DNA from: Hyphomicrobiales bacterium
Lineage (GTDB): Bacteria > Pseudomonadota > Alphaproteobacteria > SPJN01
Assembly (NCBI GenBank): GCA_006844605.1
Contig: SPJN01000013.1
Span: forward strand, 760-64,759
Length of the DNA stretch: 64,000 nucleotides
Reading direction: 5' to 3'
The notes beneath the pieces are model-generated. The model saw only the letters and a program-made list of their open reading frames with translations. It was not told the origin of the DNA and made no database searches. This document shows, piece after piece, positions 1 through 23,092 of this stretch. The position numbers were made by a program, and so were the translations under genes. The number at the start of each line of letters is the position of its first letter. Positions within the stretch are counted from its first letter, which is position 1.

Positions 1-159
1 ATAATCGAACTGGTGTGACAGGCCTGTTGTGCCAACATCAATGACAATGGCGGATCCAACAGACTGGTTTCTGGAGAGACGAATGTCGCGCCGATCAAGA
101 TAACGGAGAACTTTATGGCGTGGCTCATGGCCAAAGGGCGGTTTGGTCTGTGTAGTCAT
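1..159 (-). CDS. hypothetical protein; only the 5' part is in the window (the gene runs off the window start)
   Basis: Seen in sequence. Reverse-strand ATG at 159-157 with an AAGGAG Shine-Dalgarno 8 nt upstream (plus-strand 'ggggggctcctt' at 160-171). The frame stays open through all 53 codons down to position 1 (MTTQTKPPFGHEPRHKVLRYLDRRDIRLSRNQ...). It is not in the supplied ORF track because no in-window stop exists. Same strand as the integrase and directly downstream of it. Confidence 0.35.
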   Translation of the reverse strand, partial: MTTQTKPPFGHEPRHKVLRYLDRRDIRLSRNQSVGSAIVIDVGTTGLSHQFDY

Positions 160-295
160 GGGGGGCTCCTTCTTGTTTTATTGTCTGCAAAGATTTCCCT
201 TTGCTAAATCCCAAGTGTTCAGGATCGACCAGATCGTCAAGAGCACTTCTGGGCGAATTGAAAATTTTTGTTCTGCGTTGTGTCTTTAGACATCT

Positions 296-1504
296 TCAGC
301 CTGTGCCGACGTCTTTTGACCCACTCGGATCTATTGGCAGTGCCTGCTCAAATTCCTTGGCAAGCAACCGATCAAAGGCAGATCCGTCTTGGCGGGTTAA
401 GTTGGGCACATAGCGGGAATAGACGTTGAACAGCATTTTTGTGGTCGTATGCCCCATCTGTTTGGCAATCCATTCTGGTGCCTCGCCCGCGGCAAGCCAT
501 AGCGTGGCGGCTGTGTGCCGCATGTGATAGGGACGGCGTTCTCGTAGGCCCAGATGGCGGAGCAGGGGATACCAAACACGCTGGGTGACATTGCGGTTCT
601 GGAGGGGTTGTCCATTCCGGGTGCAGAAAACAAAGTCAGACAGCTCGCCAGTGGCCTTCTTCTGATCCTGCAGGGCATCAAAGACCAATTGGTTCATCTG
701 CACTGCCCGGAATGAGCCATCGGTTTTCGTTGGGACAATTTTTCCCTGCACATAGGCTTGATGAACCAGAACCTCCCGCCGCTCGAAATCTACATTCTTC
801 CAAGGCAGGCCATCGATCTCGCTGGAACGCAATCCGGTGAAGAAGCGTACTGTGAAATAGTTCTTATAATCAGGACGGACCGTATCAATGATCTGCTTCA
901 CCTCAGCCAGGGTAAATGGTTCAACCTCAACCCTTGGTTCCTTTAACGGCTTGATGTTGCGGTAGGGATTGACGAACTCATAACGGTCGGCAGCTTCCGT
1001 TAGCACCATCCTTAAAGGCACCATGATGTGATTAACCCGTGCGGGGCTCAGCGTCTTGCCGGTTACAGGATTAGCGGACGCAATAGCCGCACGAAACTTT
1101 AGAAGGTCGGATTTTTTGATCGCATTAACCGGCAGCTTCCCGAACTGTGGCAACAGATAGAGGTCGAAATTAATATCCATCGTGTCGATATAGGATTGGC
1201 GCCATTCGACTTTCTTTTCAGCACGCCACTCTTCTGCGAATGCTGAAAACAAGGGAACATCCGCACGCATGGCAGCAGCGCGCTGGTCAAGCTTCCGAAA
1301 CTCTTCGGCCTTAGGGCTGTTCGGGAAGTATTTCCCATAGTCGAATCTCCCCAGCACCATCTCCGCTTCCATGCGCTTAACGATACCCTGCAGGCGCCTG
1401 CGGTGCTGTGGTGTGTCGGTGAGGCCGGTCGCTTCACGGCAACGCTGCCTTTTGTATTGGAAGTCGACATGAAGCATATCTCCGCGTTTGGTGATGGATG
1501 CCAT
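296..1504 (-). CDS. int: tyrosine-type site-specific recombinase / phage integrase
   Basis: 402 aa. C-terminal catalytic region typical of tyrosine recombinases (…HMRHTAATLWLAAGEAPEWIAKQMGHTTTKMLFNVYSRYV) with an N-terminal SAM-like/core-binding region. Placed next to a small excisionase-like gene on the same strand. Confidence 0.9.
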   Translation of the reverse strand: MASITKRGDMLHVDFQYKRQRCREATGLTDTPQHRRRLQGIVKRMEAEMVLGRFDYGKYFPNSPKAEEFRKLDQRAAAMRADVPLFSAFAEEWRAEKKVEWRQSYIDTMDINFDLYLLPQFGKLPVNAIKKSDLLKFRAAIASANPVTGKTLSPARVNHIMVPLRMVLTEAADRYEFVNPYRNIKPLKEPRVEVEPFTLAEVKQIIDTVRPDYKNYFTVRFFTGLRSSEIDGLPWKNVDFERREVLVHQAYVQGKIVPTKTDGSFRAVQMNQLVFDALQDQKKATGELSDFVFCTRNGQPLQNRNVTQRVWYPLLRHLGLRERRPYHMRHTAATLWLAAGEAPEWIAKQMGHTTTKMLFNVYSRYVPNLTRQDGSAFDRLLAKEFEQALPIDPSGSKDVGTG

Positions 1505-1514
1505 TGCTCACCCC

Positions 1515-1736
1515 CTAGTGTTGAGAGACAGGCAGCAATGAGGAGCCACCATCGTTCATATCGCTCTCAATCTGCTCCCAAATGTAAAGAATCTTCCGAC
1601 CGCCAAAGGGACGGATGTAGTGAATGCCCTCCAGAAGGACGGAATCTTTGAGGCGTTCACGAATGGTGCGGGGGTCGTACTTAATGAGCGAAGAAAGCTC
1701 TTCTGTCGTGAGGTAGGTGTTTTTCGCTTGCATCAT
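1515..1736 (-). CDS. AlpA/Xis-family DNA-binding excisionase-like protein
   Basis: 73 aa. HTH-like segment 'YLTTEELSSLIKYDPRTIRERL'. Lies 10 bp upstream of int on the same strand, the classic xis-int arrangement. The family call is by resemblance, not by computed search. Confidence 0.55.
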   Translation of the reverse strand: MMQAKNTYLTTEELSSLIKYDPRTIRERLKDSVLLEGIHYIRPFGGRKILYIWEQIESDMNDGGSSLLPVSQH

Positions 1737-1885
1737 CTGGTTATTCCTTTCATTTTGTTACTTCACATGACGACACATCAGGTTGCTGGGCGTTATGTCG
1801 TTCTAAATGACATATAGTATGCATAAGTGTACATGTCAAGGGCGTTTTGTATAAAAAAGAGACTTTATGTCGTTTTGGGTGACGT

Positions 1886-2089
1886 ATGATTAAGTGCCAC
1901 TTGTCCCGGATGATGGGAGAACGGAAGCTAAAGGTGATGGATGTTGCGCGGGAAACGGGCCTCCACCGCAATACTGTGACCTTGCTTTATAAGGAAACCG
2001 CAACACGAGTTGATCTCGAAGCGGTTGATAAGCTTTGTGAGCTTTTTGATTGCGAGGTTGGGGATCTTTTCGAACGGATCACGGATTAA
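1886..2089 (+). CDS. XRE/Cro-family helix-turn-helix transcriptional regulator
   Basis: 67 aa. HTH 'LKVMDVARETGLHRNTVTLLYKE' followed by '...LCELFDCEVGDLFE', typical of small XRE regulators. Divergent from xis-int, so a Cro/CI-like control module for the island is plausible. Confidence 0.6.
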   Translation: MIKCHLSRMMGERKLKVMDVARETGLHRNTVTLLYKETATRVDLEAVDKLCELFDCEVGDLFERITD

Positions 2090-2099
2090 AGGACCAACC

Positions 2100-3005
2100 A
2101 TGATTCCTGATTATCAAAGTTTAATGCTCCCTGTGTTGCAGGAAGGCGCCGAAGAGGAAATTAGCACACGCGATGCCATTGAAAATCTGGCTTCCAAGTA
2201 CGGGTTGTCAGAAGAGGATCGCGAGCAGATGCTGCCTAGCGGTAAACAGCGCACCTTTGATAATCGTGTAAATTGGGCGAAGGGCTACCTGAAGCAGGCT
2301 GGCTTAGTCAGATATACTGATCGCGGTGCCTATGTGGCGACTGATGAGGGGCGAAAAGTTCTCGCTACAAATCCAGAGAGAATCGACAACAAGTTTCTCA
2401 AGCAATACGAAGCCTTTCAAGAATTTCAAAATCGCAAAGGCACTCAAAGCGAAAAAGAAGAGACGCAGGATGGGGTTGATGATGCAATTACCCCGGATGA
2501 AGCGCTTCGCGCAGCGCACCGCAAAATCAATGCGTCACTAGCCGCCGACCTTTTGGGCCGAGTAAGAGAGGCCTCACCGCAATTTTTTGAAGAGCTGATT
2601 GTCGAATTATTGCTTGCGATGGGGTATGGCGGCACTTCAGAAGATGCTGCCCGCGCGTTGGGGCAATCGGGAGATAACGGCGTTGATGGTGTGGTCGATC
2701 AGGACCCTCTTGGCGTTGATCAGGTCTATGTCCAAGCAAAGCGATACGCGGAAACTAATAAAATAGGTTCCGGAGATATTCGCGATTTCTTTGGCGCGCT
2801 CAATCTAAAAAAGGCGCAAAAAGGTATATTCTTCACCACCTCTTCATTTAGTCCGGCGGCGGTTCAAACAGCGAAGGACCTTGGGATGCGGATTGTACTT
2901 ATTGACGGGGCGCAGCTAGCAAAGCTCATGATCAAATATGGAGTTGGGTGTCGGGAAGAGGAAGTTATCAGGCTGATGGGCATTGACGAAGAGTATTTCG
3001 ACTAA
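2100..3005 (+). CDS. mrr: Mrr-family type IV (modification-dependent) restriction endonuclease
   Basis: The track ORF 2010..3005 is trimmed to the ATG at 2100 (MIPDYQSLMLPVLQE…), which matches the usual Mrr N-terminus and follows 'aaaggacc' right after the XRE stop at 2089. N-terminal Mrr_N winged helix. C-terminal Mrr_cat region with 'GVDGVVDQD…VYVQAKRY' (D…QxK catalytic motif) and 'IFFTTSSFS'. Confidence 0.8.
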   Translation: MIPDYQSLMLPVLQEGAEEEISTRDAIENLASKYGLSEEDREQMLPSGKQRTFDNRVNWAKGYLKQAGLVRYTDRGAYVATDEGRKVLATNPERIDNKFLKQYEAFQEFQNRKGTQSEKEETQDGVDDAITPDEALRAAHRKINASLAADLLGRVREASPQFFEELIVELLLAMGYGGTSEDAARALGQSGDNGVDGVVDQDPLGVDQVYVQAKRYAETNKIGSGDIRDFFGALNLKKAQKGIFFTTSSFSPAAVQTAKDLGMRIVLIDGAQLAKLMIKYGVGCREEEVIRLMGIDEEYFD

Positions 3006-3058
3006 AGGGGTATTACCGCTGGTCCCTAGGAATGAATGTGAAATGAAAGAAGAATTCA

Positions 3059-5851
3059 TTGAACGCAGTTGAGATTGAACAAGCAATTACGGAATTGGCG
3101 GAACAGCCCTTTGACGGGCAAGAGTTTCCGTTCGATTTTTTGCGCGCGTTTGGCAATAAAGAAACCACGATCAAGCGCCTGAAAAAGGGTGACTCTAACA
3201 AATCAGACTTGGGTGGGGTGCTGCAACGAAGCCATATCCACATCAAAGTTTGTGAAGAAGGCAAGGTCACCCAAACGCTGGAAGCTTTGAAAGCAAGCCC
3301 CGCAACGACCAAGGCGAAGGCCAAATTTGTTCTTGCCACTGATGGTATTCAGCTAGAGGCGGAATACCTGAATACCGGTGAAACGGTCGCCTGCAATCAT
3401 AATGATTTTCCAGATCATTTTGGTTTCTTCCTGGCGCTTGCCGGTATCACCACTGTTAAGCAAATCCGCGAAAGCTCATTCGACATTAAGGCAACGGGCC
3501 GATTGAACCGGCTTTATATTGAGTTGCTCAAAGACAATCCGGAATGGAGCACGGCTGAACGCAGGCCGGATATGAACCATTTCATGGCGCGGTTGATCTT
3601 TTGCTTCTTTGCCGAAGATACAGACATCTTCCACGGGGATGACCTGTTTACCTCCACCATCGAGCAAATGAGTGCGCGGGATGCGTCTGATACCGATCAT
3701 GTGATTAGCGAAGTCTTTCGTGCCATGAACACGAAAACGGAAGATAGGGAAAAGGCAGGCATTCCCCGCTGGGCCAATGGCTTTCCATACGTGAACGGGG
3801 GGCTGTTTTCCGGTAGTACGGAAACGCCGAAATTTAGCAAGATTGCGCGGTCTTACCTGCTGCATATCGGCAACCTTGATTGGAAGAAGATCAACCCGGA
3901 TATCTTTGGCTCTATGATCCAGGCGGTGGCCGATGATGAAGAACGCGGCCATCTGGGGATGCACTACACCAGTGTGCCGAATATCCTGAAAGTTTTAAAC
4001 CCGCTGTTTTTGGATGATTTGCGGGCCGGGCTTGATGCCGCCGGTGATAGCGCGCAGAAGCTACTAAATCTACGCAAACGTATGGCGAAGATCAGGGTGT
4101 TTGATCCTGCCTGTGGCTCCGGCAACTTTCTGGTCATTGCCTATAAGGAAATGCGAGCCATTGAGGCGGAGATAAACAAGCGTCGTGGGGAAGAACATCT
4201 TAAAACGACTATTCCGCTTACCAACTTTCGCGGCATTGAGGTGCGGGACTTCCCGGCAGAGATAGCACGTCTAGCCCTCATCATCGCGGAATATCAATGC
4301 GATGTGACTTATCGTGGCCAGAAGGAGGCGTTGGCAGAGTTTCTGCCATTGAATAAAGAAAACTGGATCACTTGTGCAAACGCGCTGCGTGTTGATTGGC
4401 TGTCCATCTGTCCGCCCACTGGCACGGGTGTAAAACACTATGCCGATGATTTGTTTCATTCGCCGGTTGATCAGGCCGAGATCGATTTTGAGAACGAGGG
4501 GGGTGAGACCTACATTTGTGGGAACCCGCCATATTTGGGCAGTACATGGCAATCCAAGGAGCAAAAAGAAGATTTAAAGGCTATCTTTGATGGCAAGACC
4601 AAAACCTGGAAGTCATTGGATTATGTTGCTGGATGGGTGATGAAGGCGGCTGAATTTGGCAGACATACCAAATCCGTTTCTGCTTTTGTGACTACAAACT
4701 CAATTTGCCAAGGCCAACAGGTGCCAATTTTGTGGCCTTTAGTCTTTGAGACTGGCCATGAAATTACATTTGCCCACACGTCATTTAAGTGGGCAAATTT
4801 GGCAAGCAAAAACGCTGGTGTAACAGTAGTAGTTGTTGGGATAGGACGAGAATTCGGCGCGAGGCGCCTCCTATATTCCCATGATAACGACAATCATGAA
4901 ACCGTATTAGCAGCAACCAATATCAACGCCTACCTTGTGCCGTCAGGTGGCGTGCTGGTGAAAAAGCAACAACAGCCCATTTCAGACGTTCCACCGATGG
5001 TATTCGGAAACAAACCGGTTGATGGCGGGCATCTGATCCTTTCAAAGAGCGAGATAGGCGAATTGTGTTTGACCGACAACGAGGTCAGAAAATTTGTTAG
5101 GCCATTTCTGGGTTCGGAAGAGTTCATTTCGGGTAAACAGCGGTTTTGCCTATGGATTGATGATGGATGTGTTGATGACTTGTTGAGACATCCAATAGTA
5201 GCGCAGCGTGTTGCTGCTGTTGAGAAGATGAGACTGAACAGCACCAAAGTGGCAACAAATCGCGCAGCGGCGTGGCCCCATCGGTTTGATGAAATACGGC
5301 AAAGGGGGTCGGAAACATCTTTGTTGGTTCCAAGCGTTTCATCTGAAAGCAGACCATATTTGCCAGTTGGCTACGTCCCAGAAGGGACAATAGTTAGCAA
5401 CCTTGCATTCGCCTTGTTTGATGCGCCGCTCTGGGTAACTTCAGTAATTGCTTCACGAACTCATCTGGTGTGGGTGAAAACGGTGTGTGGGCAACTCGAA
5501 ACTCGCATTAGGTACTCCAATACCCTTGGTTGGAACACCTTTCCGTTACCTAAGCTGACCGAGAAAAACAAAGAAGACCTGACACGCTGCGCCGAAGATA
5601 TTTTGCTTGCGCGGGAGGCGCATTTTCCTGCGACCATTGCCGACCTGTATGATCCTGAGAAAATGCCAGAAGATTTGCGCCGGGCGCATGATCGCAATGA
5701 TGAGGTGTTGGAGCGCATCTATATCGGTCGCCGCTTCAAAAATGACACCGAACGCTTGGAAAAGCTTTTTGAGCTTTATACCAAGATGACCGCTAAACTG
5801 GAAACCTGTCGGCAAACGAAAGACAATAAAAAAGGGAAGGCACATGCATGA
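3059..5851 (+). CDS. MmeI-family type IIL/IIG restriction-modification enzyme (N-terminal endonuclease region, gamma-class N6-adenine methyltransferase, C-terminal target-recognition domain)
   Basis: 930 aa, TTG start at 3059. From memory it aligns along the whole length with MmeI (919 aa): 'LIFCFFAEDTDIF', 'FPYVNGGLF', 'FDPACGSGNFLV' (motif I), 'FRGIEVRDFPAEIARLALI', 'GNPPYLG' (motif IV) and the C-terminal 'LYDPEKMPEDLRRAH…LFELYTKMT'. In the putative PD-ExK endonuclease segment the sequence is 'ATDGIQLEAEYL' and does not obviously conserve the D…ExK spacing; see findings. Confidence 0.85.
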   Translation: MNAVEIEQAITELAEQPFDGQEFPFDFLRAFGNKETTIKRLKKGDSNKSDLGGVLQRSHIHIKVCEEGKVTQTLEALKASPATTKAKAKFVLATDGIQLEAEYLNTGETVACNHNDFPDHFGFFLALAGITTVKQIRESSFDIKATGRLNRLYIELLKDNPEWSTAERRPDMNHFMARLIFCFFAEDTDIFHGDDLFTSTIEQMSARDASDTDHVISEVFRAMNTKTEDREKAGIPRWANGFPYVNGGLFSGSTETPKFSKIARSYLLHIGNLDWKKINPDIFGSMIQAVADDEERGHLGMHYTSVPNILKVLNPLFLDDLRAGLDAAGDSAQKLLNLRKRMAKIRVFDPACGSGNFLVIAYKEMRAIEAEINKRRGEEHLKTTIPLTNFRGIEVRDFPAEIARLALIIAEYQCDVTYRGQKEALAEFLPLNKENWITCANALRVDWLSICPPTGTGVKHYADDLFHSPVDQAEIDFENEGGETYICGNPPYLGSTWQSKEQKEDLKAIFDGKTKTWKSLDYVAGWVMKAAEFGRHTKSVSAFVTTNSICQGQQVPILWPLVFETGHEITFAHTSFKWANLASKNAGVTVVVVGIGREFGARRLLYSHDNDNHETVLAATNINAYLVPSGGVLVKKQQQPISDVPPMVFGNKPVDGGHLILSKSEIGELCLTDNEVRKFVRPFLGSEEFISGKQRFCLWIDDGCVDDLLRHPIVAQRVAAVEKMRLNSTKVATNRAAAWPHRFDEIRQRGSETSLLVPSVSSESRPYLPVGYVPEGTIVSNLAFALFDAPLWVTSVIASRTHLVWVKTVCGQLETRIRYSNTLGWNTFPLPKLTEKNKEDLTRCAEDILLAREAHFPATIADLYDPEKMPEDLRRAHDRNDEVLERIYIGRRFKNDTERLEKLFELYTKMTAKLETCRQTKDNKKGKAHA

Positions 5852-5873
5852 CAGATGCAAGTGAAAACGCACC

Positions 5874-6818
5874 ATGGTAAAGGCAAGCAGAAATGGACTT
5901 AGGCTCGACGCTGATTTCACTGAGGATACGGTCGGCTTCGCGCTTGAATCGTTCTTGGCGGTGATGAGTTTTCCACGTCAGCGCTTTTCGATAGAGCCGT
6001 TCTCTCGTGCCAAGGAACGGTGGTTGGCCGCTGATGCGCGATTGCACGGTGATGTGCGCGGGTTTTGCCCCATTTATATGCAATTTAAAAGGCCGTCTGC
6101 GTATCCAGATTTTAGTACTGCGAAAATTATTAGGGAAAGAAAGGCGCTGAACCTTCTAACGTCGCCCCATGCCCTCTATTTTGATCTACGCCAGAAACAG
6201 CAACATCATTGGGATTTCCAGCACAATATTCTATTCCGGCTCGGTCAAAGGCTTCGCAGTCGTCAGCTTGGTGATGCCGCCTATGTTTGCCCTTTATTCC
6301 TAGAACGGTCCGCTTACAGATTCCATGTGCACTTGTCCGGACTTTCGCTGTGGCCGCGCTTTTGGAGACATTATCCTTGGGAATATGAAGAAGTTTTAGT
6401 AGGCGATGGCGGCAGGAAGATTCGCTTCGATCGTATCCCTGTGCTGGCGGAACACATAACTGTGCCGCCGCACAAAACGGTTTCAAGCGCCAAGCATCGT
6501 TACAGCTTCACGGAAGCAGGAAATGAACTGTGTTTCCACTCGCCAGAGGCCATTCCTGATGGAGCAACTACTCTCGCTGCATTTTTGGATGCGTTGTCAG
6601 GTCGCTTTCTGGGTGGTGGTGAAAAAATCCGGTCAGAGCAAGCAAACCAAGAACTTCAGGACTTGATGAATGAGGTCTTGGGCGATGGGCGTGAAGTCCC
6701 CCAGTCAATCATCGAGATGGACGCGTCTGACCCCATTGGAAACTGGTTGGCTTGGGGCGATTATTTGCGTCTGGAATTTGGAATAGATCAGTACGCGCTG
6801 GTAAGGTGGGAGGATTAG
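5874..6818 (+). CDS. hypothetical protein; candidate HamA-like (DUF1837-type) partner of the downstream helicase
   Basis: 314 aa. No family recognised from sequence. It starts 22 bp after the MmeI-like gene. Its 3' end carries the 'gggagg' Shine-Dalgarno for the GTG start of the helicase gene 3 bp downstream. It contains a possible nuclease-like 'GDVRGFCPIYMQFKRP' segment. The HamA assignment is inferred from gene order only. Confidence 0.45.
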   Translation: MVKASRNGLRLDADFTEDTVGFALESFLAVMSFPRQRFSIEPFSRAKERWLAADARLHGDVRGFCPIYMQFKRPSAYPDFSTAKIIRERKALNLLTSPHALYFDLRQKQQHHWDFQHNILFRLGQRLRSRQLGDAAYVCPLFLERSAYRFHVHLSGLSLWPRFWRHYPWEYEEVLVGDGGRKIRFDRIPVLAEHITVPPHKTVSSAKHRYSFTEAGNELCFHSPEAIPDGATTLAAFLDALSGRFLGGGEKIRSEQANQELQDLMNEVLGDGREVPQSIIEMDASDPIGNWLAWGDYLRLEFGIDQYALVRWED

Positions 6819-6821
6819 AAA

Positions 6822-8873
6822 GTGAGCAATGCTAAATCAATCCCCTCCGTTTCTGTCACTTACGCCCGCAATGGTAGCTCCAAGCAATCGAATGAGCTCG
6901 GAATGCGGGTTATGCAGGAACGCGCCTATGACCGGCGGGGGGAACAGTATCTGCTGATCAAGTCACCACCGGCATCGGGCAAAAGCCGTGCCTTGATGTT
7001 CATTGCGCTTGATAAGCTAAACAATCAGGGCTTGAAGCAGGCCATCATCGTTGTGCCGGAAAAGTCCATTGGGTCCAGCTTCAACAATGAACCTTTGTCT
7101 GATTTTGGATTTTATTGGGACTGGTCTGTCGAGCCAAAATGGAACCTGTGTAATGCGCCGGGGGAAGAAGGCGGCAAGGTTAAGTCCGTAAAGGCGTTTC
7201 TGGATAGTGATGATCAGGTGCTGGTTTGCACGCACTCCACATTCCGTTTTGCGATAGATAAGTTTGGTGCGGATGTATTTGATGATCGCCTAATTGCCAT
7301 TGATGAATTTCACCATGTCAGCGCAAACCCTGATAACAAGCTGGGCGCGCATTTGGGCGAGTTCATGGCGCGCGATAAAGTTCATATCGTGGCGATGACA
7401 GGCTCATATTTCCGTGGTGATGCTGTGCCGGTGATGGCGGCGGATGATGAATCCCGCTTTGCGACCGTCACCTATACCTATTATGAGCAGCTCAACGGCT
7501 ATGAGCACCTAAAGACGCTCAATATCGGCTATTATTTCTATTCGGGTTCCTATGTGGGCGAGATTTTGAGCGTTCTCGATCCGAGCGAAAAGACCATTGT
7601 GCATATCCCGAACGTGAATTCGCGGGAAAGCACGAAAGACAAGATCAAGGAAGTTGAAGATATCATTGAAGAGCTGGGAGACTGGAAGGGCACGGACCCT
7701 GTTACCGGATTCCATCTCGTCGAAACAGCCGATGGGCGCACATTGCGCATTGCGGATCTTGTGGAAGACGGTGCCAATAAACGCGATAAGGTATCGGCCG
7801 CGCTGAAAGACCCCACGCAAAAAGATAATCGTGATCATGTCGATATCATCATCGCGCTTGGTATGGCGAAAGAAGGGTTTGACTGGATTTGGTGTGAACA
7901 TGCACTAACCGTCGGGTATCGCTCTAGCCTGACAGAAATTATTCAGATCATTGGCCGCGCAACCCGTGATGCGCCGGGCAAGGAAAGCTCGCGCTTTACA
8001 AATTTGATTGCAGAGCCGGATGCCTCTGAAGAAGCGGTAACCGAAGCCGTCAATGATACGCTGAAAGCCATTGCCGCCAGCTTGTTGATGGAGCAGGTGC
8101 TTGCTCCGCGTTTTAACTTTACGCCGAAAGCGACATCCACTGGCCCAACCGAAGGCGTTGATTACGGTGAAGGCGGCTATGATCCTGAAAAGACCAATGT
8201 TGGGTTCTGCGAAGAAACAGGCCAATTCGAGATTGAGATCAACGGCCTTGTCGCTCCAAAAGGTGATGATGCGCAGCGCATTTGTAAGGAAGACTTGAAT
8301 GAAGTGATCACGGCATTCGTGCAGGACAAAACGAATGTTGAGCGTGGTATCTTTGATGAAGAAATGGTGCCCGAAGAACTGACACAGGTTCGTATGGGCC
8401 GTATCATCAAGGACAAATACCCTGAGCTTGATGAAGAAGACCAAGAGGCTGTCCGCCAACATGCGGTGGCCGCCCTCAACCTCGTGCAGGCCGCAGATGG
8501 GAAGATCAAGGAAACCGAAGGTGACGAATTTGGTGGCAGCACCGCATTGATTGATGGGGTGCGTAAGTTCGCGATGGATGTGCGAGACCTCGATATTGAT
8601 TTGATCGATAGGATCAACCCATTTGGCGAGGCCTATTCCATCTTGGCTAAATCGATGAGCGAAGAGAGCCTAAAGCAGGTGGCGGCGGTGATCGCTGCAA
8701 AGCGAACCAAAATCACCCCAGATGAGGCCCGTGATTATGCAATTCGCGCTGTGAAGTTTAAACGTGAACATGGGAGGGTTCCTTCTGTAAGCGCTGCTGA
8801 CCCGTGGGAACAAAAACTAGCTGAAGGTGCTGCAGCTTTTGTGCGGTTCAAGGACGAGGGCCGATATGAGTGA
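6822..8873 (+). CDS. superfamily-2 DExH-box helicase (candidate Hachiman HamB-like)
   Basis: 683 aa. GTG start with a strong Shine-Dalgarno (gggagg). Walker A 'SPPASGKSRAL', motif II 'AIDEFHHV' (DEFH), motif VI 'QIIGRATRD'. A C-terminal ~250 aa acidic extension follows. Confidence 0.8.
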   Translation: MSNAKSIPSVSVTYARNGSSKQSNELGMRVMQERAYDRRGEQYLLIKSPPASGKSRALMFIALDKLNNQGLKQAIIVVPEKSIGSSFNNEPLSDFGFYWDWSVEPKWNLCNAPGEEGGKVKSVKAFLDSDDQVLVCTHSTFRFAIDKFGADVFDDRLIAIDEFHHVSANPDNKLGAHLGEFMARDKVHIVAMTGSYFRGDAVPVMAADDESRFATVTYTYYEQLNGYEHLKTLNIGYYFYSGSYVGEILSVLDPSEKTIVHIPNVNSRESTKDKIKEVEDIIEELGDWKGTDPVTGFHLVETADGRTLRIADLVEDGANKRDKVSAALKDPTQKDNRDHVDIIIALGMAKEGFDWIWCEHALTVGYRSSLTEIIQIIGRATRDAPGKESSRFTNLIAEPDASEEAVTEAVNDTLKAIAASLLMEQVLAPRFNFTPKATSTGPTEGVDYGEGGYDPEKTNVGFCEETGQFEIEINGLVAPKGDDAQRICKEDLNEVITAFVQDKTNVERGIFDEEMVPEELTQVRMGRIIKDKYPELDEEDQEAVRQHAVAALNLVQAADGKIKETEGDEFGGSTALIDGVRKFAMDVRDLDIDLIDRINPFGEAYSILAKSMSEESLKQVAAVIAAKRTKITPDEARDYAIRAVKFKREHGRVPSVSAADPWEQKLAEGAAAFVRFKDEGRYE

Positions 8874-10053
8874 CCCTGACCTAGATGAATTGCGGAGTGA
8901 GTTGGCTGAATTTGCCAAACCTCAAAAGTCGATTAAGAGAACCGCCAAAGAAGAGCGAATCATTTCTGGGTTTGAGGAAATTCAGCGCTTTGTTGATGAG
9001 CACGGTCGTCCGACTGCACATGGCGAGGAGCGAGATATTTTTGAGCGGCTTTATGCAGTTCGTTTGGATCGCATTCGTGAGCAAGCTGAGTGCCGTGAAC
9101 TAGTCGAAGAACTGGATCATCAAGGCCTGCTAGGCGATCAGCCGATTGAAGTGGTAGCAGATGACATTGATGATGAAGCGCTTCTTGCTGAATTAGGTGC
9201 AGAAAGCGAAACATCTGACCTAACTCAATTGAAGCATGTTCGTTCCACGGCTGATCGAAAAGCCGCTGAGGAAATTGCGGATCGAAAGAAGTGTGAGGAT
9301 TTTGAAAAATTCAAACCTTTGTTTGAACGTCTTCGTGATGATCTCGATAAGGGTAGGCGCGAGACAAGGCCAGTTACAAAGGATTCAGGTTTTGTGAAAG
9401 CTGACATTAATGTCGGACAATTTTTTGTTCTTGGCGGCCAGATCGCATATGTTGCTAGCGTAGGCGAGCGGATAAAGGCCCCAAATGGCGATTATGACGC
9501 TCGGCTGCGCGTGATCTATGATAATGAAACTGAAAGCGACCTTCTGCAAAGATCACTTCAGCGGGCGTTATACAAGGACGAAGCGGGAAGGCGTGTTACA
9601 GAAGCAGACGCAGGACCATTGTTTTCCGGTGTAGCGGGTGAGGATGACGAGCAAAGCGGCACAATTTATGTCCTGCGTAGCAAATCGGACCATCCAACAA
9701 TTTCAGCTAATCGTGACCTGATCCACAAAATCGGTGTAACGGGTGGTGACGTGAAGAAGCGGATTGCGAATGCAAAGAATGATGCAACCTACCTTTTGGC
9801 TGATGTGGAGGTTGTGGCGACTTATGAGCTCTACAATATCAATAGAACCAAGCTCGAAAAGTTGATCCACAAGTTTTTTGACACGGCTCGCTTGGACATC
9901 GAGATTAAGGATAGGTTCGGCAATCCAGTTTCACCCCGTGAGTGGTTCATTGTGCCGTTGTTTGTTATCGATGAAATGGTTGATAAGCTGATGGAGGGGG
10001 CATTGGATCAGTGCCAATTTGATCCTACATCCGTTGCGATTAGGGTGAGATAA
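8866..10053 (+). CDS. T5orf172 (MUG113)/GIY-YIG-superfamily domain protein with coiled-coil N-terminus
   Basis: The track ORF 8827..10053 is trimmed to the ATG at 8866 (MSDPDLDEL…), which overlaps the helicase stop (ATGAGTGA) and indicates translational coupling. C-terminal 'GTIYVLRS…IHKIGVTGGDVKKRIAN…EWFIVP' resembles the T5orf172 / GIY-YIG-like fold. The N-terminal half is charged and helical. Confidence 0.55.
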   Translation: MSDPDLDELRSELAEFAKPQKSIKRTAKEERIISGFEEIQRFVDEHGRPTAHGEERDIFERLYAVRLDRIREQAECRELVEELDHQGLLGDQPIEVVADDIDDEALLAELGAESETSDLTQLKHVRSTADRKAAEEIADRKKCEDFEKFKPLFERLRDDLDKGRRETRPVTKDSGFVKADINVGQFFVLGGQIAYVASVGERIKAPNGDYDARLRVIYDNETESDLLQRSLQRALYKDEAGRRVTEADAGPLFSGVAGEDDEQSGTIYVLRSKSDHPTISANRDLIHKIGVTGGDVKKRIANAKNDATYLLADVEVVATYELYNINRTKLEKLIHKFFDTARLDIEIKDRFGNPVSPREWFIVPLFVIDEMVDKLMEGALDQCQFDPTSVAIRVR

Positions 10054-10220
10054 CCAGATTATTTGTTGAAGGATCGGGTGGCAATCTATTTGTGGGTGCG
10101 GATTTCTGTGTTATTCGGCATTTGGGGTGTTGGTCAGTTCAAACAATTCACTAATTGGCTATAAATGTGGTGGTATTTACACTTGAAGCCGGGCCTCATT
10201 TTTTCCATAATGAACTTTCC

Positions 10221-10397
10221 AACTGGTGCTCTTTACGCGTAATGCCTCTGGCATGGTCAGGTGTATAGCTAGACCCAAACTTATTGAGCGGATTATGGCG
10301 CGATAAGGCCAAATTTCCTTATCTAGCGCTCACAGGTTCGCTTATTTAGATAAGGAAATTTGGCCTTATCGCTTACTCTTAGGTATTGAGCCCAGTT
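10221..10397 (+). ncRNA. candidate retron msr-msd non-coding RNA (hypothetical)
   Basis: Intergenic region directly upstream of the effector + RT gene pair. An imperfect inverted repeat, 'aactggtgctc' at 10221-10231 against 'gagcccagtt' at 10388-10397, could serve as the a1/a2 pair (~177 nt apart). The 26-bp perfect hairpin at 10300-10372 inside it would be the msd stem. The boundaries are not proven. Confidence 0.25.
10300..10372. repeat. perfect inverted repeat (26-bp arms, 21-nt loop)
   Basis: 'gcgataaggccaaatttccttatctag' … 'tagataaggaaatttggccttatcgc'. No U-tract follows it. It is flanked by the 8-bp direct repeat 'tattgagc' at 10282-10289 and 10384-10391. Confidence 0.85.
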
Positions 10398-10399
10398 TG

Positions 10400-11353
10400 A
10401 TGACTCTGCAAGATGATGATCCTAGATATAGTATCATCAAAGGCGTTGATTTTTCCAAGTCTAGAATATTATTGGAGCCGCACATCATATTTGTTTGTGG
10501 CGGAGTTGTTGATATTACCGCAACAGAATGGAAGTCGTTGCGTAATCTGTTTATGAACTTGGCTGGGGGGGCGGATACACACGCGGACAGTTTCATGTTA
10601 GCGGAAAATTTTAAGGATTGGCGCGAAGGATACAAAAGTCTGTCAAAATTTGAGGAGGATATTGCTTTCATTTCTTCGCTGGTCGTTCTGTTTCTCGAGA
10701 GCCCCGGTGCATTAGTTGAGCTCGGGTTGTTCTATTCCAGTGGCCAAATTCGGAAGAAGTTATTTGTGGTAGTTCACAATTCCTATCATGATTCAGATTC
10801 ATTTATAAAACTCGGAATACTGGCCCCCTTGGAAGAGGTTAGCCAAGAATTAGTGCGCTCGTATGAGCTGGATCACGAAAATCCATCTGGCATTGATGAG
10901 CAAGCGGTCAAGGAGGTTTTAGATGACGTTTTGAATCAGGTAAACAATACGCCTAAGACTCAAGCGTTTAGTACGGACGATAGAGGACATCAGATATTCT
11001 TTGTCTATCAAATGATCAAAATGTCGGGTGCTCTTACTTTTCAGGAAATTGAAGATTTGATTGCAGAAAGTGAGTTAGAAGTCAAAAAATCTGAGATCAA
11101 GACTGCATTGTTTATTCTCGAAAAGTTTGGATTTGTTAGCAAAACAAAGGAGTCTTCCCAGTTCTTCTATTATGCAAGCAATCAAGAAATGGATCGGGTT
11201 GATCTTCATGTGGAGATTCAAGGGGAGGTCCGTAGTGTTACAGAACTGAAAATTGATCTAGGCCAATATTATCACCAGTTAGCAAAATCGAATGTCACAT
11301 TTAAGAGACGGCTGAAAGTGATGAACAGGCAGGATTCGGGAGAGGTTCAATGA
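10400..11353 (+). CDS. putative retron effector: SLOG/LOG/NDT-like Rossmann N-terminal domain plus C-terminal winged-helix domain
   Basis: The track ORF starts at TTG 10397; ATG 10400 is preferred. 'IIFVCGGVVD' and '…VVLFLESPGALVELGLFYSSG' resemble the LOG/NDT 'GGxG … PGGxGTxxE' signatures. The C-terminus 'FQEIEDLIAESELEVKKSEIKTALFILEKFGFV' looks like a winged helix. The stop overlaps the RT start (ATGA). Confidence 0.5.
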   Translation: MTLQDDDPRYSIIKGVDFSKSRILLEPHIIFVCGGVVDITATEWKSLRNLFMNLAGGADTHADSFMLAENFKDWREGYKSLSKFEEDIAFISSLVVLFLESPGALVELGLFYSSGQIRKKLFVVVHNSYHDSDSFIKLGILAPLEEVSQELVRSYELDHENPSGIDEQAVKEVLDDVLNQVNNTPKTQAFSTDDRGHQIFFVYQMIKMSGALTFQEIEDLIAESELEVKKSEIKTALFILEKFGFVSKTKESSQFFYYASNQEMDRVDLHVEIQGEVRSVTELKIDLGQYYHQLAKSNVTFKRRLKVMNRQDSGEVQ

Positions 11354-12300
11354 AGCCATCCGAACTGTTGCGCAATCAATTCTCTTTGTCATCGAACGAG
11401 TTGCAGCGGTACGTAAATTCGTGCCCTCATAGATACAAAACATACAATATTAGAAAGAGAAATGGTGGCGCACGGGAGATCTCCCAACCTTCTAGGGATT
11501 TAAAGATCGTCCAGAGGTTTCTGATTGATGAGCTGTTGATAGAGAATCTAATGGTTCATAAGGCGGCGACAGCTTATCGAAAGGGCCGGAACATTGTGGA
11601 TAATGCTCGGCCGCATTTAGGCAATCAGTTTCTGCTGAAAATTGATCTTGAGGAATTCTTCCCATCCATCAAAGGAGATGACTTCGAGAAATACCTTTCT
11701 GAGAAATTTCCGATGGAGGAAGCCGAAGTTGCCCTGCTGACTAGAATTTTCTTTAAATCTGATAATGGCGAGCTAAAGCTAAGTATTGGATCGCCTGGTT
11801 CGCCCCTAATTTCGAATGCTCTGATGTTTCGTTTTGATAATGTGATTTCAGATTATGCTGACAGGATGAATGTAGCTTATACGCGCTACTCAGATGATAT
11901 GACGTTCTCAACAAACGAACGAGGGGCTTTATTCGATTGGCCGAAAATGGTTGGAGACGAGCTGGGCAGGTTGGATTATCCCACTCTTAGACTTAACCCT
12001 GACAAAACTGTGTTCTCATCAAAGAAATTCAACCGTCATGTCACAGGTATTACGATTACAAATGAGGGTACTGCTTCGATCGGTAGAGGGCGAAAGCGAG
12101 AGTTGAGATCGAGGCTGTTCAATGTTCAAAATTTGAACGCGGAAGAGCGGCGGCAATTGAGGGGACATATTGCTTTTGCCGCACAGGTGGAGCCAGATTT
12201 TGTGGAAAAACTTGGACAAAAGTACGCTAACGAACTTCAAGCTTTGTCGCGCAGTGATCCTGATAACGTTGATGTAAATCCGTCAAAGAAGGATTCTTGA
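11350..12300 (+). CDS. retron-type reverse transcriptase
   Basis: 316 aa. RT motifs: 'RKRNGGAREISQP' (1), 'FLLKIDLEEFFPSI' (2), 'SIGSPGSPLISNALM' (B-like), 'YTRYSDDMTF' (YxDD). Also the two retron-diagnostic motifs 'NARPH' (NAxxH) and 'HVTGITI' (VTG). Confidence 0.85.
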   Translation: MKPSELLRNQFSLSSNELQRYVNSCPHRYKTYNIRKRNGGAREISQPSRDLKIVQRFLIDELLIENLMVHKAATAYRKGRNIVDNARPHLGNQFLLKIDLEEFFPSIKGDDFEKYLSEKFPMEEAEVALLTRIFFKSDNGELKLSIGSPGSPLISNALMFRFDNVISDYADRMNVAYTRYSDDMTFSTNERGALFDWPKMVGDELGRLDYPTLRLNPDKTVFSSKKFNRHVTGITITNEGTASIGRGRKRELRSRLFNVQNLNAEERRQLRGHIAFAAQVEPDFVEKLGQKYANELQALSRSDPDNVDVNPSKKDS

Positions 12301-12437
12301 TATAGGTCATCTAGGCTATAGGGATTTTGGGTGTTTCAATGTGGCGTAAAGTCTTGGGCACAATATGGACACAAAATGGTCACAGCGCAGTGCAGCCAAA
12401 ATAGCCGTTCTGTAGCCTGTTGATTTCATTGACAAAA

Positions 12438-12514
12438 TGGTGGGCGATACAAGATTTGAACTTGTGACCTCTGCCATGTCAAGGCAGCACTCTAACCAAC
12501 TGAGCTAATCGCCC
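12438..12514 (-). tRNA. tRNA-Val (anticodon GAC)
   Basis: The reverse complement reads GGGCGATTAGCTCAGTTGGTTAGAGTGCTGCCTTGACATGGCAGAGGTCACAAGTTCAAATCTTGTATCGCCCACCA. Cloverleaf: 7-bp acceptor stem, anticodon stem CTGCC/GGCAG with loop TTGACAT (anticodon GAC), T-loop TTCAAAT, and an encoded CCA. Confidence 0.9.
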
Positions 12515-12635
12515 GCACCATTTAGAGACGGCCTTTCTAGTGAAATTCGCGCGGTGCCGCAAGCCTTCATCGCGGAAAAAAGTGCGGCAAAGTTCACCGT
12601 AATTGGCTCCCTTAAAGGGCGTCCCGATCGTTGCC

Positions 12636-12965
12636 CTATAATTTCACCGGTGCGAAATGGGGAAAGGGGCGGTCGCAGCCGGCGACATTGGCCAATGCGG
12701 GAAAGCTGGCGACTTCGCCCATTTTGGCCCACAGGGCCTGCACGCGTTCGTTCGTGTGGGCAGCCGCCGCGGCCTCATCATTGGCCCATTCAAAAATTTC
12801 CAGAAAAGTGCCGTCATCCGCATGAAGCAAAAGCGACGGGCGCGACGTTGCCAGCCCTTCCATTTTTAGTGTCATATGATGTTGCGCAATCAGGTCGCGC
12901 AATGCTTCATGGTTTTTGGGATCGTCCGTGTCGGGCTTATAGGTGGCGATGGTAAAGCGGCTCAT
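12636..12965 (-). CDS. antibiotic-biosynthesis-monooxygenase (ABM)-family / stress-responsive alpha-beta barrel protein
   Basis: 109 aa small barrel-like protein (…TFLEIFEWANDEAAAAAHTNERVQALWAKMGEV). Its start overlaps the upstream gene's stop (ATGA). Confidence 0.5.
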   Translation of the reverse strand: MSRFTIATYKPDTDDPKNHEALRDLIAQHHMTLKMEGLATSRPSLLLHADDGTFLEIFEWANDEAAAAAHTNERVQALWAKMGEVASFPALANVAGCDRPFPHFAPVKL

Positions 12966-13975: not shown

Positions 13976-14017
13976 GATCGTGTCCTTTTTGAATGGTCGC
14001 GCCCTGTTAGTCTTTCT

Positions 14018-15109: not shown

Positions 15110-15255
15110 GATCTGTCCCCCAAATTGTTATGCAAATATCGAACGCGCAGTGTGCTTAGGCAGCTGGGTTGAGGCAAGCAAATAATGGGATAGATGTGAG
15201 ATGGGGGAAGCAAGGCGCATGACGCGCCCGGCGCACATGGGTGGCATGGCGCAAA

Positions 15256-15292
15256 GAAAAAGCGCGCACCCCGTTATGTTGGGGCACGCGCC
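15256..15292 (-). terminator. rho-independent terminator downstream of the OmpA-family gene
   Basis: On the minus strand: a ~12-bp GC-rich stem (ggcgcgtgcccc / ggggtgcgcgc, with G-U wobbles), loop 'aacataac', followed by 'ttttt'. Confidence 0.45.
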
Positions 15293-15315
15293 TTTTGGTT
15301 CGGTCTGACCTGAAA

Positions 15316-23054: not shown

Positions 23055-23092
23055 TGTGATACAAAGGGGGAATGCCAGACGGGGCTTAAATT

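Follow-up and report, generated by a model that had tools for sequence, protein, structure and literature searches.

Williams's 2002 survey of tRNA-targeting islands reportedly describes tyrosine integrases whose crossover point lies in the anticodon loop. Several described systems resemble the cargo that such an element may carry. YeeA(DnmA)/YeeB/YeeC systems consist of a methyltransferase of the "group 2" MmeI homologues, a DEAD helicase, and a GIY-YIG/T5orf172 protein encoded on one strand (Morgan et al. 2009, PMC2731913; Fernandez et al. 2023, PMC9973331; Piel et al. 2021, bioRxiv 10.1101/2021.05.05.442762). The Bacillus subtilis yeeABC cluster gave no phage protection when tested (PMC9973331). 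Retron-Sen2 (St85), a type II-A1 retron, has the order ncRNA, NDT-like effector with a C-terminal DNA-binding domain, and reverse transcriptase (RT) (Mestre et al. 2020, PMC7736814; Bobonis et al. 2020, bioRxiv 10.1101/2020.06.22.160168). In defence islands on mobile elements of E. coli (PMC10121019) and Vibrio (10.1101/2021.05.05.442762), unrelated systems are packed by an integrase at a tRNA hotspot. Here, we compare these systems with one end of the window, that is, the whole 64,000-nucleotide stretch of DNA that was analyzed. Positions 1 to about 12484 are very probably the tRNA-proximal part of a site-specific integrative island at tRNA-Val(GAC).

The GC content is 48.3% in positions 1-12437 and 56.0% in 12515-64000. 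All 12.4-kb windows of the backbone lie within 54.8%-57.2%, a range that excludes the island, and GC3 is 0.43-0.62 in the island genes versus 0.56-0.70 in the backbone genes. The AT-rich character noted in the preliminary description was thus confirmed by both GC windows and codon composition, but its backbone value of ~60% GC was too high. The distal end of the island lies to the left of the window. The boundary on the tRNA side is formed by two features.

12438..12514, minus strand: tRNA-Val(GAC) (ARAGORN and Rfam tRNA, 71.7 bits)
12295..12437, minus strand: element-side att arm, with three direct repeats and a GACCT(C/A)T motif

The island directly adjoins the tRNA 3' end at 12438. The edge had rightly been assigned to this 3' end but was given the coordinate 12514, which is the 5' end; it is at or inside the 3' half of the tRNA, between 12438 and about 12484. 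These 47 nt, from the anticodon loop to CCA, would correspond to the att core. The crossover is placed at the anticodon loop because a 47-nt tRNA-Val 3' fragment is present in a related MAG, where a 51-nt copy (the 47 nt plus 4 nt downstream) lies within the island array (L004:2381-2431). In the arm, three neighboring direct repeats, TGTGNCCA, spaced by 11 bp, occupy 12355-12384 and are read as putative arm sites of the integrase; the conserved GACCT(C/A)T motif is located near 12300. In L001, L004, and L005, repeat triplets lie equally far from the tRNA as island-specific sequence variants, together with further conserved blocks, and this architecture is common to all four islands compared. 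A search for repeats of the tRNA-Val 3' end found none anywhere in the window, in agreement with the earlier statement that attL and attR could not be defined in it. A Logan metagenome contig of the same species stops 1 nt past the tRNA.

The opposite side of the visible island is occupied by a gene module and its control region.

1..159, minus strand: N-terminal 53 codons of an exonuclease-like gene that continues off the window (homologues follow the integrase elsewhere)
296..1504, minus strand: tyrosine integrase, 402 aa, with an N-terminal arm-DNA-binding domain (Pfam)
1515..1736, minus strand: Xis-like protein, 73 aa, a putative assignment; the gene ends 10 nt upstream of the integrase start
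1793-1815 and 1865-1887 (1793..1887), no strand: two 23-nt direct repeats (repeat search of the window)
1886..2089, plus strand: Cro/C1-type HTH regulator, 67 aa (Pfam HTH_26, 4.8e-21)

This core, in which the HTH gene diverges from the Xis-like, integrase, and exonuclease-like genes, recurs in four islands, and the cargo is placed between the att arm and the HTH gene. The integrase matches Phage_integrase (2e-18), Arm-DNA-bind_2 (2.7e-16), Phage_int_SAM_3, and Phage_int_M in Pfam. Its identity is 95% with the integrase of L005, 91% with that of L003, and 90% with that of L004. When islands that carry different arm repeats are compared, 11 of the 25 N-terminal residues of the integrase differ, and the remainder is ~92% identical. 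Each of the four islands has the Xis-like gene in this place, and the L005 copy is 98.6% identical. The gene named xis in the preliminary description is present, and its label derives from position, size, and conservation: the protein had no matches in Pfam, NCBIfam, PHROG, or PADLOC, and a fold search from its AF2 model (pLDDT 53) gave no meaningful match. Each 23-nt repeat contains an ATGTC...GACAT inverted repeat, and their position in the intergenic region between the divergent xis and HTH genes suggests that they are operators. The HTH regulator, the first gene of the cargo array, is 100% identical in L005, with homologues in the equivalent position in L003 and L004. Homologues of the exonuclease-like gene (252 and 259 aa) are located directly 3' of the integrase in L003 and L005. 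As had been noted, this gene runs off the window; its membership of the conserved module supports the view that the element is larger than the window.

The switch-like arrangement of the Cro-like and xis-int genes recalls the layout of temperate phages. The window might accordingly hold the end of a prophage or phage satellite, with structural or hijacking genes off the window and the defence genes as moron cargo by the att site. Relatives of the integrase with 49-53% identity lie at the ends of two IMG/VR viral contigs, and the exonuclease-like homologue of L003 matches PHROG 192, "DNA polymerase exonuclease subunit" (6e-8; its Pfam RNase_T match is weak, E 0.054). Against these points, no integrase among 50,697 phage records is more than 31% identical to that of the island. 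The genes in the 21 kb around L003, the closest complete relative, contained no capsid, tail, terminase, or replication family (Pfam; the PHROG scan covered three genes), and this stretch holds RHS/Tc-toxin genes, a T2SS-like ATPase, and a large recombinase-like gene. We consider a phage origin of this kind very unlikely.

Comparison with related genomes supported the integrative island that the preliminary description had proposed. In the conspecific MAG GCA_039768095.1, the backbone is 99.18% identical over 11,330 bp, whereas the island, core included, is just 81-89% identical. This MAG has about 155 bp in place of the 2.3-kb retron cassette and no retron, a gap at the target-recognition domain (TRD) reflecting a different recognition region, and unrelated genes in the slot of a 314-aa protein; cargo turnover is quick. 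In the MAG CBDDKB01, the flank genes are 77% identical at the nucleotide level (the oxidoreductase is 85% identical in amino acids), and the same tRNA-Val is followed by wholly different low-GC cargo. The 47-nt tRNA-Val 3' fragment lies about 70 kb downstream of the tRNA and is followed by a second HTH-xis-int island. In this only case with both ends visible, tRNA and integrase are 51 kb apart, 18 kb separate the integrase from the fragment, and the stretch as a whole may be a composite of several elements. No unoccupied tRNA-Val site was found among the relatives examined, and the sole more distant syntenic genome is without the tRNA at that place.

The lack of an empty site, with low-GC DNA after tRNA-Val in every relative examined, would also fit a fixed chromosomal defence hotspot, an old immobilized remnant with an inactive integrase that changes only by homologous recombination and local gene insertion. 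This explanation agrees with the missing distal att site in the window, an IS element that interrupts one related integrase copy, and the retron, which resembles a local indel more than the element core. It is nevertheless unlikely. The integrase is full length and highly conserved across the islands. Each of the four islands retains three intact arm repeats, whose sequence varies together with the integrase N terminus. The divergence of the island next to a nearly identical backbone fits replacement or separate acquisition better than decay in place, and the related MAG shows a mark of tandem integration in its clean 47-nt tRNA fragment.

The region might instead belong to an integrative conjugative or mobilizable element, whose transfer genes would lie off the window. 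The sole island with both ends visible has a size typical of such conjugative elements (about 70 kb) and contains T2SSE/T2SSF-type ATPase and platform genes, and clusters of the YeeABC type frequently lie on conjugative plasmids (120 of 266 records). However, about 60 kb of related island sequence contained no gene for a relaxase, coupling protein, or type IV secretion, outside which about 37 kb of the 70-kb island lies, and a conjugative element appears distinctly unlikely. The reading as a horizontally acquired site-specific island, with three recognizable anti-phage systems as cargo, is well supported. All of the genes that had been named (integrase, Cro-like regulator, Mrr, MmeI-like, helicase, T5orf172, and retron) were recovered by family or domain matches. 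The cargo is as follows.

2100..3005, plus strand: Mrr-family type IV (modification-dependent) restriction endonuclease, 301 aa (Pfam, PADLOC)
3059..5851, plus strand: YeeA/DnmA-like MmeI-family N6-adenine methyltransferase with TRD, 930 aa (Pfam, PADLOC)
5874..6818, plus strand: 314-aa protein of no known family, in a variable slot between methyltransferase and helicase
6822..8873, plus strand: YeeB-like DEAD/ResIII superfamily-2 helicase, 683 aa (Pfam DEAD and ResIII)
8866..10053, plus strand: YeeC-like T5orf172/GIY-YIG-superfamily protein, about 395 aa, overlapping the helicase stop at its start
10218..10400, plus strand: retron ncRNA (Rfam, folding, inverted repeats)
10400..11353, plus strand: retron effector, NDT-like with a C-terminal winged-helix domain, St85/STM3845 family (NCBIfam, PADLOC)
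11350..12300, plus strand: retron RT, St85 family, type II-A (NCBIfam, PADLOC, Pfam)

The first cargo protein matches Mrr_N (6e-28) and Mrr_cat (7.6e-34) in Pfam and PADLOC mREase_IV (6.4e-80) across the whole model. Its start at 2100 was set by the model alignment and the 301-aa orthologue in L005 (95.7% identical).

The MmeI-like, helicase, and T5orf172 genes, previously listed as separate items, together form one YeeA/YeeB/YeeC-type system, as judged from gene order, domains, and plasmid homologues. The YeeA-like protein has all five MmeI Pfam domains and matches PADLOC REase_MTase_IIG (2e-295). Its phmmer alignment with the MmeI structure 5hr4 begins only at residue 88, a feature that resembles the published MmeI group without the nuclease motif, and its N-terminal ~87 residues are not MmeI-like. 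The N-terminal 163 aa searched alone had no matches, and the orthologues share no conserved D...ExK motif. At the nucleotide level, the TRD region (4843-5519) is unmatched in the L005 gene, which is elsewhere 85-89% identical. The YeeB-like helicase aligns over 99% of its length with helicases on the 266 plasmid records, at 74-79% identity; a GIY-YIG gene lies downstream in most of these records, and an MmeI-like methyltransferase lies upstream in both that were inspected. The YeeC-like protein matches T5orf172 (1.3e-13) and MUG113 (1.7e-14) in Pfam. It shares 58-89% identity with the "GIY-YIG nuclease family protein" encoded after the helicase in L005, Sinorhizobium, and Klebsiella, in alignments that start at ORF residue 14. 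Defence activity of the cluster is not assured because the B. subtilis counterpart was not protective (PMC9973331). The 314-aa protein had no matches in four HMM libraries or in a PDB profile search, and its AF2 model has a pLDDT of 41.5. It has 293 homologues, all unnamed and none on plasmids, and the P. aeruginosa homologue is located within another defence island. In other clusters, the slot holds unrelated genes (Sinorhizobium and the conspecific MAG) or nothing (Klebsiella).

What had been called a retron-like cassette is a complete St85-family (type II-A) retron, ncRNA included. The effector scores 202.8 bits with NCBIfam STM3845_fam (cutoff 100) and 6.5e-75 with PADLOC NDT_II-A, and its residues 203-268 weakly match the Pfam Penicillinase_R winged helix. 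The RT scores 321.7 bits with retron_St85_RT (cutoff 235), 2.6e-109 with PADLOC RT_II-A, and 4.2e-19 with Pfam RVT_1. The ncRNA comprises an a1/a2 stem (10218-10231 with 10387-10400), the msr (10228-10292), and an msd hairpin (10300-10372), and a promoter-like site precedes it at 10183-10211. It matches the full Rfam msr model RF00170 with 38.2 bits (E 0.001), below the gathering score of 52. The fold (-78.6 kcal/mol, z = -7.2) was more stable than that of any of 200 shuffles, and the RNA contains a perfect 26-bp inverted repeat in addition to the a1/a2 inverted repeat.

Here, we propose a mechanism based on the anatomy of the locus and the comparison of related islands. The best explanation, in which we have high confidence, is a small island family that targets tRNA-Val(GAC) of an uncultured marine-type alphaproteobacterium. 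The arm-binding tyrosine integrase would recombine two sites: the att site of the element, made up of the tRNA-Val 3' 47 nt and the arm with its three integrase-binding repeats, and the anticodon loop of the chromosomal tRNA gene. Integration would leave an intact tRNA with an element-derived 3' half, and the displaced native 3' fragment is expected at the far end of the island, here left of the window. Of the cargo, Mrr would cut modified DNA as a type IV enzyme. The MmeI-family protein, unaligned with the N-terminal nuclease region of MmeI, may provide sequence recognition and self-methylation, and the helicase and GIY-YIG/T5orf172 protein may provide translocation and cleavage (after Morgan et al. 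2009, PMC2731913). The 314-aa gene is lodged within this system. By analogy with the Sen2 literature, the RT and msDNA may restrain the NDT-like toxin, which phage infection would free.

The locus resembles tRNA-targeting islands in its tyrosine integrase, its start at the tRNA 3' end, its deviant composition, its variable cargo, and the segment duplicated from the anticodon loop to the 3' end (the 47-nt fragment, in a related genome). Unlike in those islands, the integrase is at least 12 kb from the tRNA rather than adjacent and belongs to the Arm-DNA-bind_2/DUF3596 family, remote from the integrases of the phage collection searched. The three proteins of the YeeA/B/C type share the gene content and single strand of the described systems and are 58-79% identical to plasmid-borne clusters; the divergence of the methyltransferase from MmeI resembles that of the group 2 homologues, which is confined to about the first 100 residues (PMC2731913). 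The unrelated 314-aa gene between methyltransferase and helicase sets the cluster apart. The retron has the gene order of Retron-Sen2, both proteins above the St85-family cutoffs, and an ncRNA with an a1/a2 stem, msr hairpins, and a long msd hairpin. It differs in its Rfam score below the gathering threshold, in its alphaproteobacterial rather than enterobacterial host, and in its location at the inner edge of the island att arm, and it is missing from the conspecific island. As in mobile defence islands with fast cassette turnover, unrelated systems are packed by an integrase at a tRNA, and their content varies between genomes with nearly identical backbones. There is no substantive difference from those islands; the locus shows the phenomenon known from them in an uncultured alphaproteobacterial lineage, and the element is an ordinary, though well-supported, example of an already known kind.

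The difference in base composition between the island and its backbone is real and large. The GC content is 48.3% in window positions 1–12437 and 56.0% in 12515–64000; all 12.4-kb windows of the backbone lie within 54.8–57.2%, and only 2.5% of its 1-kb windows fall under the island mean. The GC3 values of the island genes are 0.43–0.62, against 0.56–0.70 for the backbone genes. Both sliding-window GC and GC3 upheld the AT-richer island of the preliminary description, with the backbone at ~56% and not at the ~60% given there. The right edge had been placed at the 3' end of tRNA-Val(GAC), the sole tRNA of the window. The island does adjoin this end, as island-type sequence and the att arm begin right after it, and the end itself lies at 12438; the coordinate proposed for the edge, 12514, is the 5' end of the tRNA. 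Weak Rfam matches to L2-Alphaproteobacteria and sR1 were taken as chance. The genes named from sequence (xis-int, a Cro-like regulator, Mrr, an MmeI-like protein, a helicase, a T5orf172 protein, and a retron-like cassette) are all present, with family matches for each except the putative xis.

Genes of the island and the bordering tRNA (window coordinates, strand)
296–1504, -, tyrosine integrase, 402 aa, full length; Pfam Phage_integrase (2e-18), Arm-DNA-bind_2, and SAM-like domains
1515–1736, -, Xis-like gene, 73 aa
1886–2089, +, Cro-like HTH gene; HTH_26
2100–3005, +, Mrr; Pfam Mrr_N (6e-28) and Mrr_cat (7.6e-34); PADLOC mREase_IV (6.4e-80), model positions 3–315 of 317
3059–5851, +, MmeI-family protein; Pfam MmeI domains
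5874–6818, +, 314-aa gene; no family match
6822–8873, +, DEAD/ResIII helicase
8866–10053, +, T5orf172/MUG113 protein
10400–11353, +, retron effector
11350–12300, +, retron reverse transcriptase (RT)
12438–12514, -, tRNA-Val(GAC)

The genes from the HTH gene through the T5orf172 gene lie on a single strand, with spacers of 3 to 53 nt and one 8-nt overlap. Mrr combines an Mrr_N winged-helix domain with an Mrr_cat PD-(D/E)xK catalytic domain and is predicted to be a full-length type IV restriction enzyme. For the Xis-like protein, Foldseek gave no usable PDB match with a single-sequence AF2 model (pLDDT 53).

The element extends beyond the window on the left, as the preliminary description had proposed. 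The 53 codons at 1–159 (-) begin a gene that comes immediately after the integrase in two related islands, L003 of the relative CBDDKB01 (252 aa) and L005 of the metagenome-assembled genome (MAG) GCA_039768095.1 (259 aa), and this gene belongs to the conserved module after the integrase. Its product has weak similarity to exonucleases (PHROG 192, 6e-8; RNase_T, E 0.054). In both islands, the gap between the integrase and the exonuclease-like gene is 9–10 nt, which leaves no room there for an att site between the two genes. The corresponding stretch of the window (171–326), from the integrase stop to the exonuclease-like start, exceeds its counterparts in L005 and L003 by ~136 nt; the extra sequence contains, by eye, a short palindrome, GTGTCTTTAGACAT, loosely like the operator-like repeats at 1793–1887. 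No repeat of the tRNA 3' end was found within the window using 24-nt and 15-nt probes with up to three mismatches, or by blastn-short with the tRNA plus 200 nt. An AAGATTT match at ~190–196, noticed by eye, was too short to be taken as the distal att site. NCBI contigs of 80,329 and 80,906 bp encode proteins identical to the window integrase and the 314-aa protein.

The anatomy of the att site was read from relatives found via the flanking oxidoreductase (12962–13975) and from two further islands found via integrase homologues. On contig CBDDKB010000002.1, the oxidoreductase is 85% identical at the amino acid level and tRNA-Val is kept (locus L001). The low-GC cargo after the tRNA is quite different, comprising a 1307-aa protein, an XerD-like recombinase, and a 793-aa protein. 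Despite this difference, the two sequences can be aligned over the first ~140 nt past the tRNA. Within this arm, three copies of TGTGNCCA recur every 11 bp in the window (12355–12384), and L001 has three TGGGACCA repeats at the matching position. The other two islands are arranged alike, each having a repeat variant of its own, and a GACCTCT motif ~135 nt from the tRNA is conserved across the islands. We infer that these tandem triple repeats beside the core are the binding sites expected of an integrase with an arm-binding domain. In the first 25 residues of the integrase, which lie within the arm-binding domain, there are 11 differences between the type shared by the window and L005 and that of L003, and the remainder is ~92% identical. 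This N-terminal divergence appears to parallel that of the arm repeats, a suggestive correspondence between two types only.

The position of the crossover is indicated by the CBDDKB01 contig. None of its loci was flagged as reversed, so all positions are in one orientation.

Landmarks of the tRNA-Val region on CBDDKB010000002.1 (approximate positions)
1,818,849, intact tRNA-Val
1,869,583, module of HTH, xis, integrase, and exonuclease genes; integrase P0003, 91% identical
1,888,810 (L004:2381–2431), 51-nt copy consisting of the 3' 47 nt of the tRNA plus 4 nt, starting at the anticodon loop

The 47-nt 3' segment of tRNA-Val is CTTGACATGGCAGAGGTCACAAGTTCAAATCTTGTATCGCCCACCA. Past the copy in L004 come arm repeats that belong to it, 7 kb of different cargo (NikR, TonB receptors, and DJ-1), and a second HTH-xis-int module, the integrase of which is interrupted by an IS element. 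As read from sequence, such an arrangement is the mark of elements that integrated in tandem at a single tRNA and crossed over at its anticodon loop. The equivalent stretch of the window, 12438 to ~12484, would by analogy count formally as element-derived. In the first CBDDKB01 island, the distance from the integrase is 51 kb to the tRNA and 18 kb to the fragment; thus, an integrase need not sit at an island end. In the presumed far arm of this 70-kb island (L004:1846–2380), a search for TGGGACCA-type sites gave none that was convincing. The att core, from the anticodon loop to the 3' end, and the arm repeats are readable directly from four islands.

The tandem island array at tRNA-Val of CBDDKB01 spans ~1,818,849–1,897,335 (L001, L003, and L004). 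Its first island, ~70 kb in length, includes the 1307-aa protein, Tc/RHS-toxin genes, T2SS-like genes, a 1170-aa recombinase-like protein, and a CBASS operon (E2/ThiF-JAB-SAVED) that immediately precedes the 47-nt tRNA fragment.

The closest comparison is with GCA_039768095.1, which is 99.18% identical to window 12646–23975 over 11,330 bp and belongs to the same species on any sensible criterion. The homologous island that it carries at this tRNA is far more divergent: identity is 88–89% for the integrase, xis, HTH, Mrr, and the initial portion of the methyltransferase, and 81% for the helicase and T5orf172 genes. The target recognition (TRD) region of the methyltransferase (window 4843–5519) has no nucleotide match in that island, unrelated genes of 135 and 183 aa occupy the place of the 314-aa gene, and ~155 bp are found where the window has its 2.3-kb retron cassette. 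Because the island is ~10 times more divergent than the backbone and differs by whole cassettes, the comparison argues for separate acquisition or replacement of the island rather than vertical inheritance. The gene content next to tRNA-Val is not identical in all relatives and varies in both GCA_039768095.1 and CBDDKB01.

An empty tRNA-Val site in a relative, to which the preliminary description had looked, was found in none of the genomes and metagenomes scanned. One true relative came out of the genome scan, with its site occupied, and the metagenome scan gave no close relative. In the next-closest syntenic MAG (66% amino acid identity), rodA-pbp2-mreDCB lies past the oxidoreductase and the tRNA is missing there. 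A Logan metagenome contig (L012, SRR25010646, 26,686 bp) matches the window backbone at 99.2% identity and stops one nucleotide past the CCA of tRNA-Val. This end suggests an assembly break in a heterogeneous population with alternative sequences downstream of the tRNA. On the backbone side, the window at 12593–12645 lacks a 1.24-kb gene present in the conspecific MAG (L011:11331–12569), which encodes a multi-pass membrane protein of 344–408 aa; in the conspecific MAG, the Logan contig, and CBDDKB01 alike, it separates a 109-aa gene from tRNA-Val.

The type of element was considered in view of ~60 kb of related island sequence, in which no virion, packaging, relaxase, or type IV secretion genes were seen. 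We rank a plain integrative island first. An integrative and conjugative or mobilizable element is less likely, as judged from island examples each covered in part. That the region is a prophage ranks low. Two IMG/VR contigs carry integrase relatives (49–53% identity) at their ends, which favors a viral origin, but no virion or packaging gene was seen in those ~60 kb and no integrase among 50,697 phage records exceeds 31% identity to that of the window. The region is most likely a tRNA-integrated island with stacked defense systems and fast cargo turnover, which is a well-known kind of element. The observation in the preliminary description is confirmed and its interpretation as an integrative island is supported, with corrections to the GC value, the edge coordinate, and the reading of the YeeABC genes as one system. 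Compared with its relatives, the locus cleanly illustrates a family of integrative islands specific to tRNA-Val in a lineage of uncultured alphaproteobacteria. The turnover of its defense cargo is fast: backbones that are 99.2% identical carry islands that differ in a recognition domain, an accessory gene, and a whole retron. The att anatomy and strain-level cassette swaps are neat but expected, and they leave the understanding of defense islands unchanged.

Several backbone loci were noted in passing. Beside the island, 16457–24493 encodes a cluster of FHA-domain, trypsin-like, and Ser/Thr-kinase-FGE-sulfatase-domain proteins, which is 99% conserved in the conspecific MAG. A 269-aa ORF of ~46% GC with no Pfam match (55960–56769, +) lies between leuC (54531–55952) and leuD (56762–57367), an odd site for a low-GC gene. 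At the right end of the window, a 386-aa ORF (62664–63824, -) in a stretch of 45.8% GC has a weak Mrr_cat match (E 1.5e-5) and may be another small acquired defense locus.

Four HMM libraries gave no family for the 314-aa protein. Its 293 homologues (~310–320 aa) are distributed over diverse Proteobacteria, those with a name are called "hypothetical protein", and none is on a plasmid. An AF2 model from a 25-sequence alignment had a pLDDT of 41.5, and a profile search against the PDB found nothing; a D54...Q70-x-K72 pattern in the sequence is only a guess at a possible motif. The genomic company of the gene suggests a role in defense. It is nonetheless a rather doubtful proposal that the protein represents a new defense-associated gene, acting alone or as an accessory of large N6-adenine methyltransferase systems. 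The gap between yeeA (MmeI-like) and yeeB (helicase), where the gene lies, may be a recurrent insertion slot for genes of this kind. The 314-aa family is the sole part of the region that could lead somewhere new. In Pseudomonas aeruginosa (loci L016–L019), a homologue with 58% identity is found between SIR2-HerA and a set comprising a 1070-aa N6 methyltransferase, a 165-aa protein, and an SNF2-helicase; a DUF499 ATPase is upstream, and the whole cluster adjoins an integrase.

The retron is complete in sequence and is assigned to the type II-A/St85 family. Its RT scores 321.7 bits with NCBIfam retron_St85_RT (cutoff 235) and matches PADLOC RT_II-A (2.6e-109), and the effector scores 202.8 bits with STM3845_fam (cutoff 100) and matches NDT_II-A (6.5e-75), with a weak winged-helix match at residues 203–268 in its C-terminal part. 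Upstream, Rfam detected an msr over the full model (10228–10292) at 38.2 bits and E 0.001, under the gathering score of 52. The RNA fold of 10215–10405 contains an a1/a2 stem, two msr hairpins, and a perfect 26-bp msd hairpin (-78.6 kcal/mol, z = -7.2). Type II-A is defined by an NDT-like effector with a C-terminal DNA-binding domain beside the RT, and the layout in the window agrees with type II-A1 of Mestre et al. (PMC7736814). In Retron Sen2, the RT and msDNA together are the antitoxin to the NDT-like toxin RcaT (Bobonis et al., 10.1101/2020.06.22.160168); by analogy, the window retron would function in the same manner. The cassette has the lowest GC of the island (0.41–0.44), and the conspecific island lacks it. 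The simplest reading is that it was inserted later, immediately inside the att arm; neither a target-site duplication nor crisp breakpoints were found at its borders.

The MmeI-like, helicase, and T5orf172 genes, which had been listed as separate defense genes, are not independent of one another and are best read as one YeeABC-type system. The MmeI-like protein contains MmeI_hel, MmeI_Mtase (6.7e-118), MmeI_TRD (6.5e-81), and MmeI_C domains, and in phmmer its residues 88–924 align with MmeI (5hr4), residue 88 corresponding to MmeI 108. The endonuclease motif PD-ExK of MmeI (D70, E80, and K82) lies within the first 100 residues (PMC2731913). The N-terminal 163 aa of the window protein, searched alone, gave no match, and a D...ExK pattern is not conserved among four orthologues. 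A stand-alone MmeI-type (type IIL/IIG) enzyme was therefore rejected: the helical, gamma-class N6-adenine methyltransferase, TRD, and C-terminal domains are present, but the N-terminal PD-ExK is not. With the first ~100 residues unlike MmeI and DEAD helicase and GIY-YIG genes as same-strand neighbors, the protein is placed in the YeeA group. Helicases in 266 plasmid records are 74–79% identical to that of the window along its entire length; a GIY-YIG gene is downstream of the helicase in most of the plasmid matches listed, and an MmeI-like "DNA methyltransferase" of ~920 aa is upstream of it in both plasmid regions inspected (Sinorhizobium and Klebsiella). For annotation, the three genes should be read together as YeeABC-type. 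The evidence on a defense function of the family is mixed: yeeAB was protective in Vibrio crassostreae against one phage group (10.1101/2021.05.05.442762), and yeeABC of B. subtilis gave no phage protection (PMC9973331). In Morgan et al. (2009), MmeI homologues of a second group lack PD-ExK, diverge in their first ~100 residues, and "invariably" have a YeeB-like DEAD helicase and a YeeC-like GIY-YIG protein as neighbors; the authors proposed a joint type-I-like system with single-strand modification (PMC2731913). The cluster in the window, with no PD-ExK, a helicase, and a GIY-YIG protein, matches this second group exactly.
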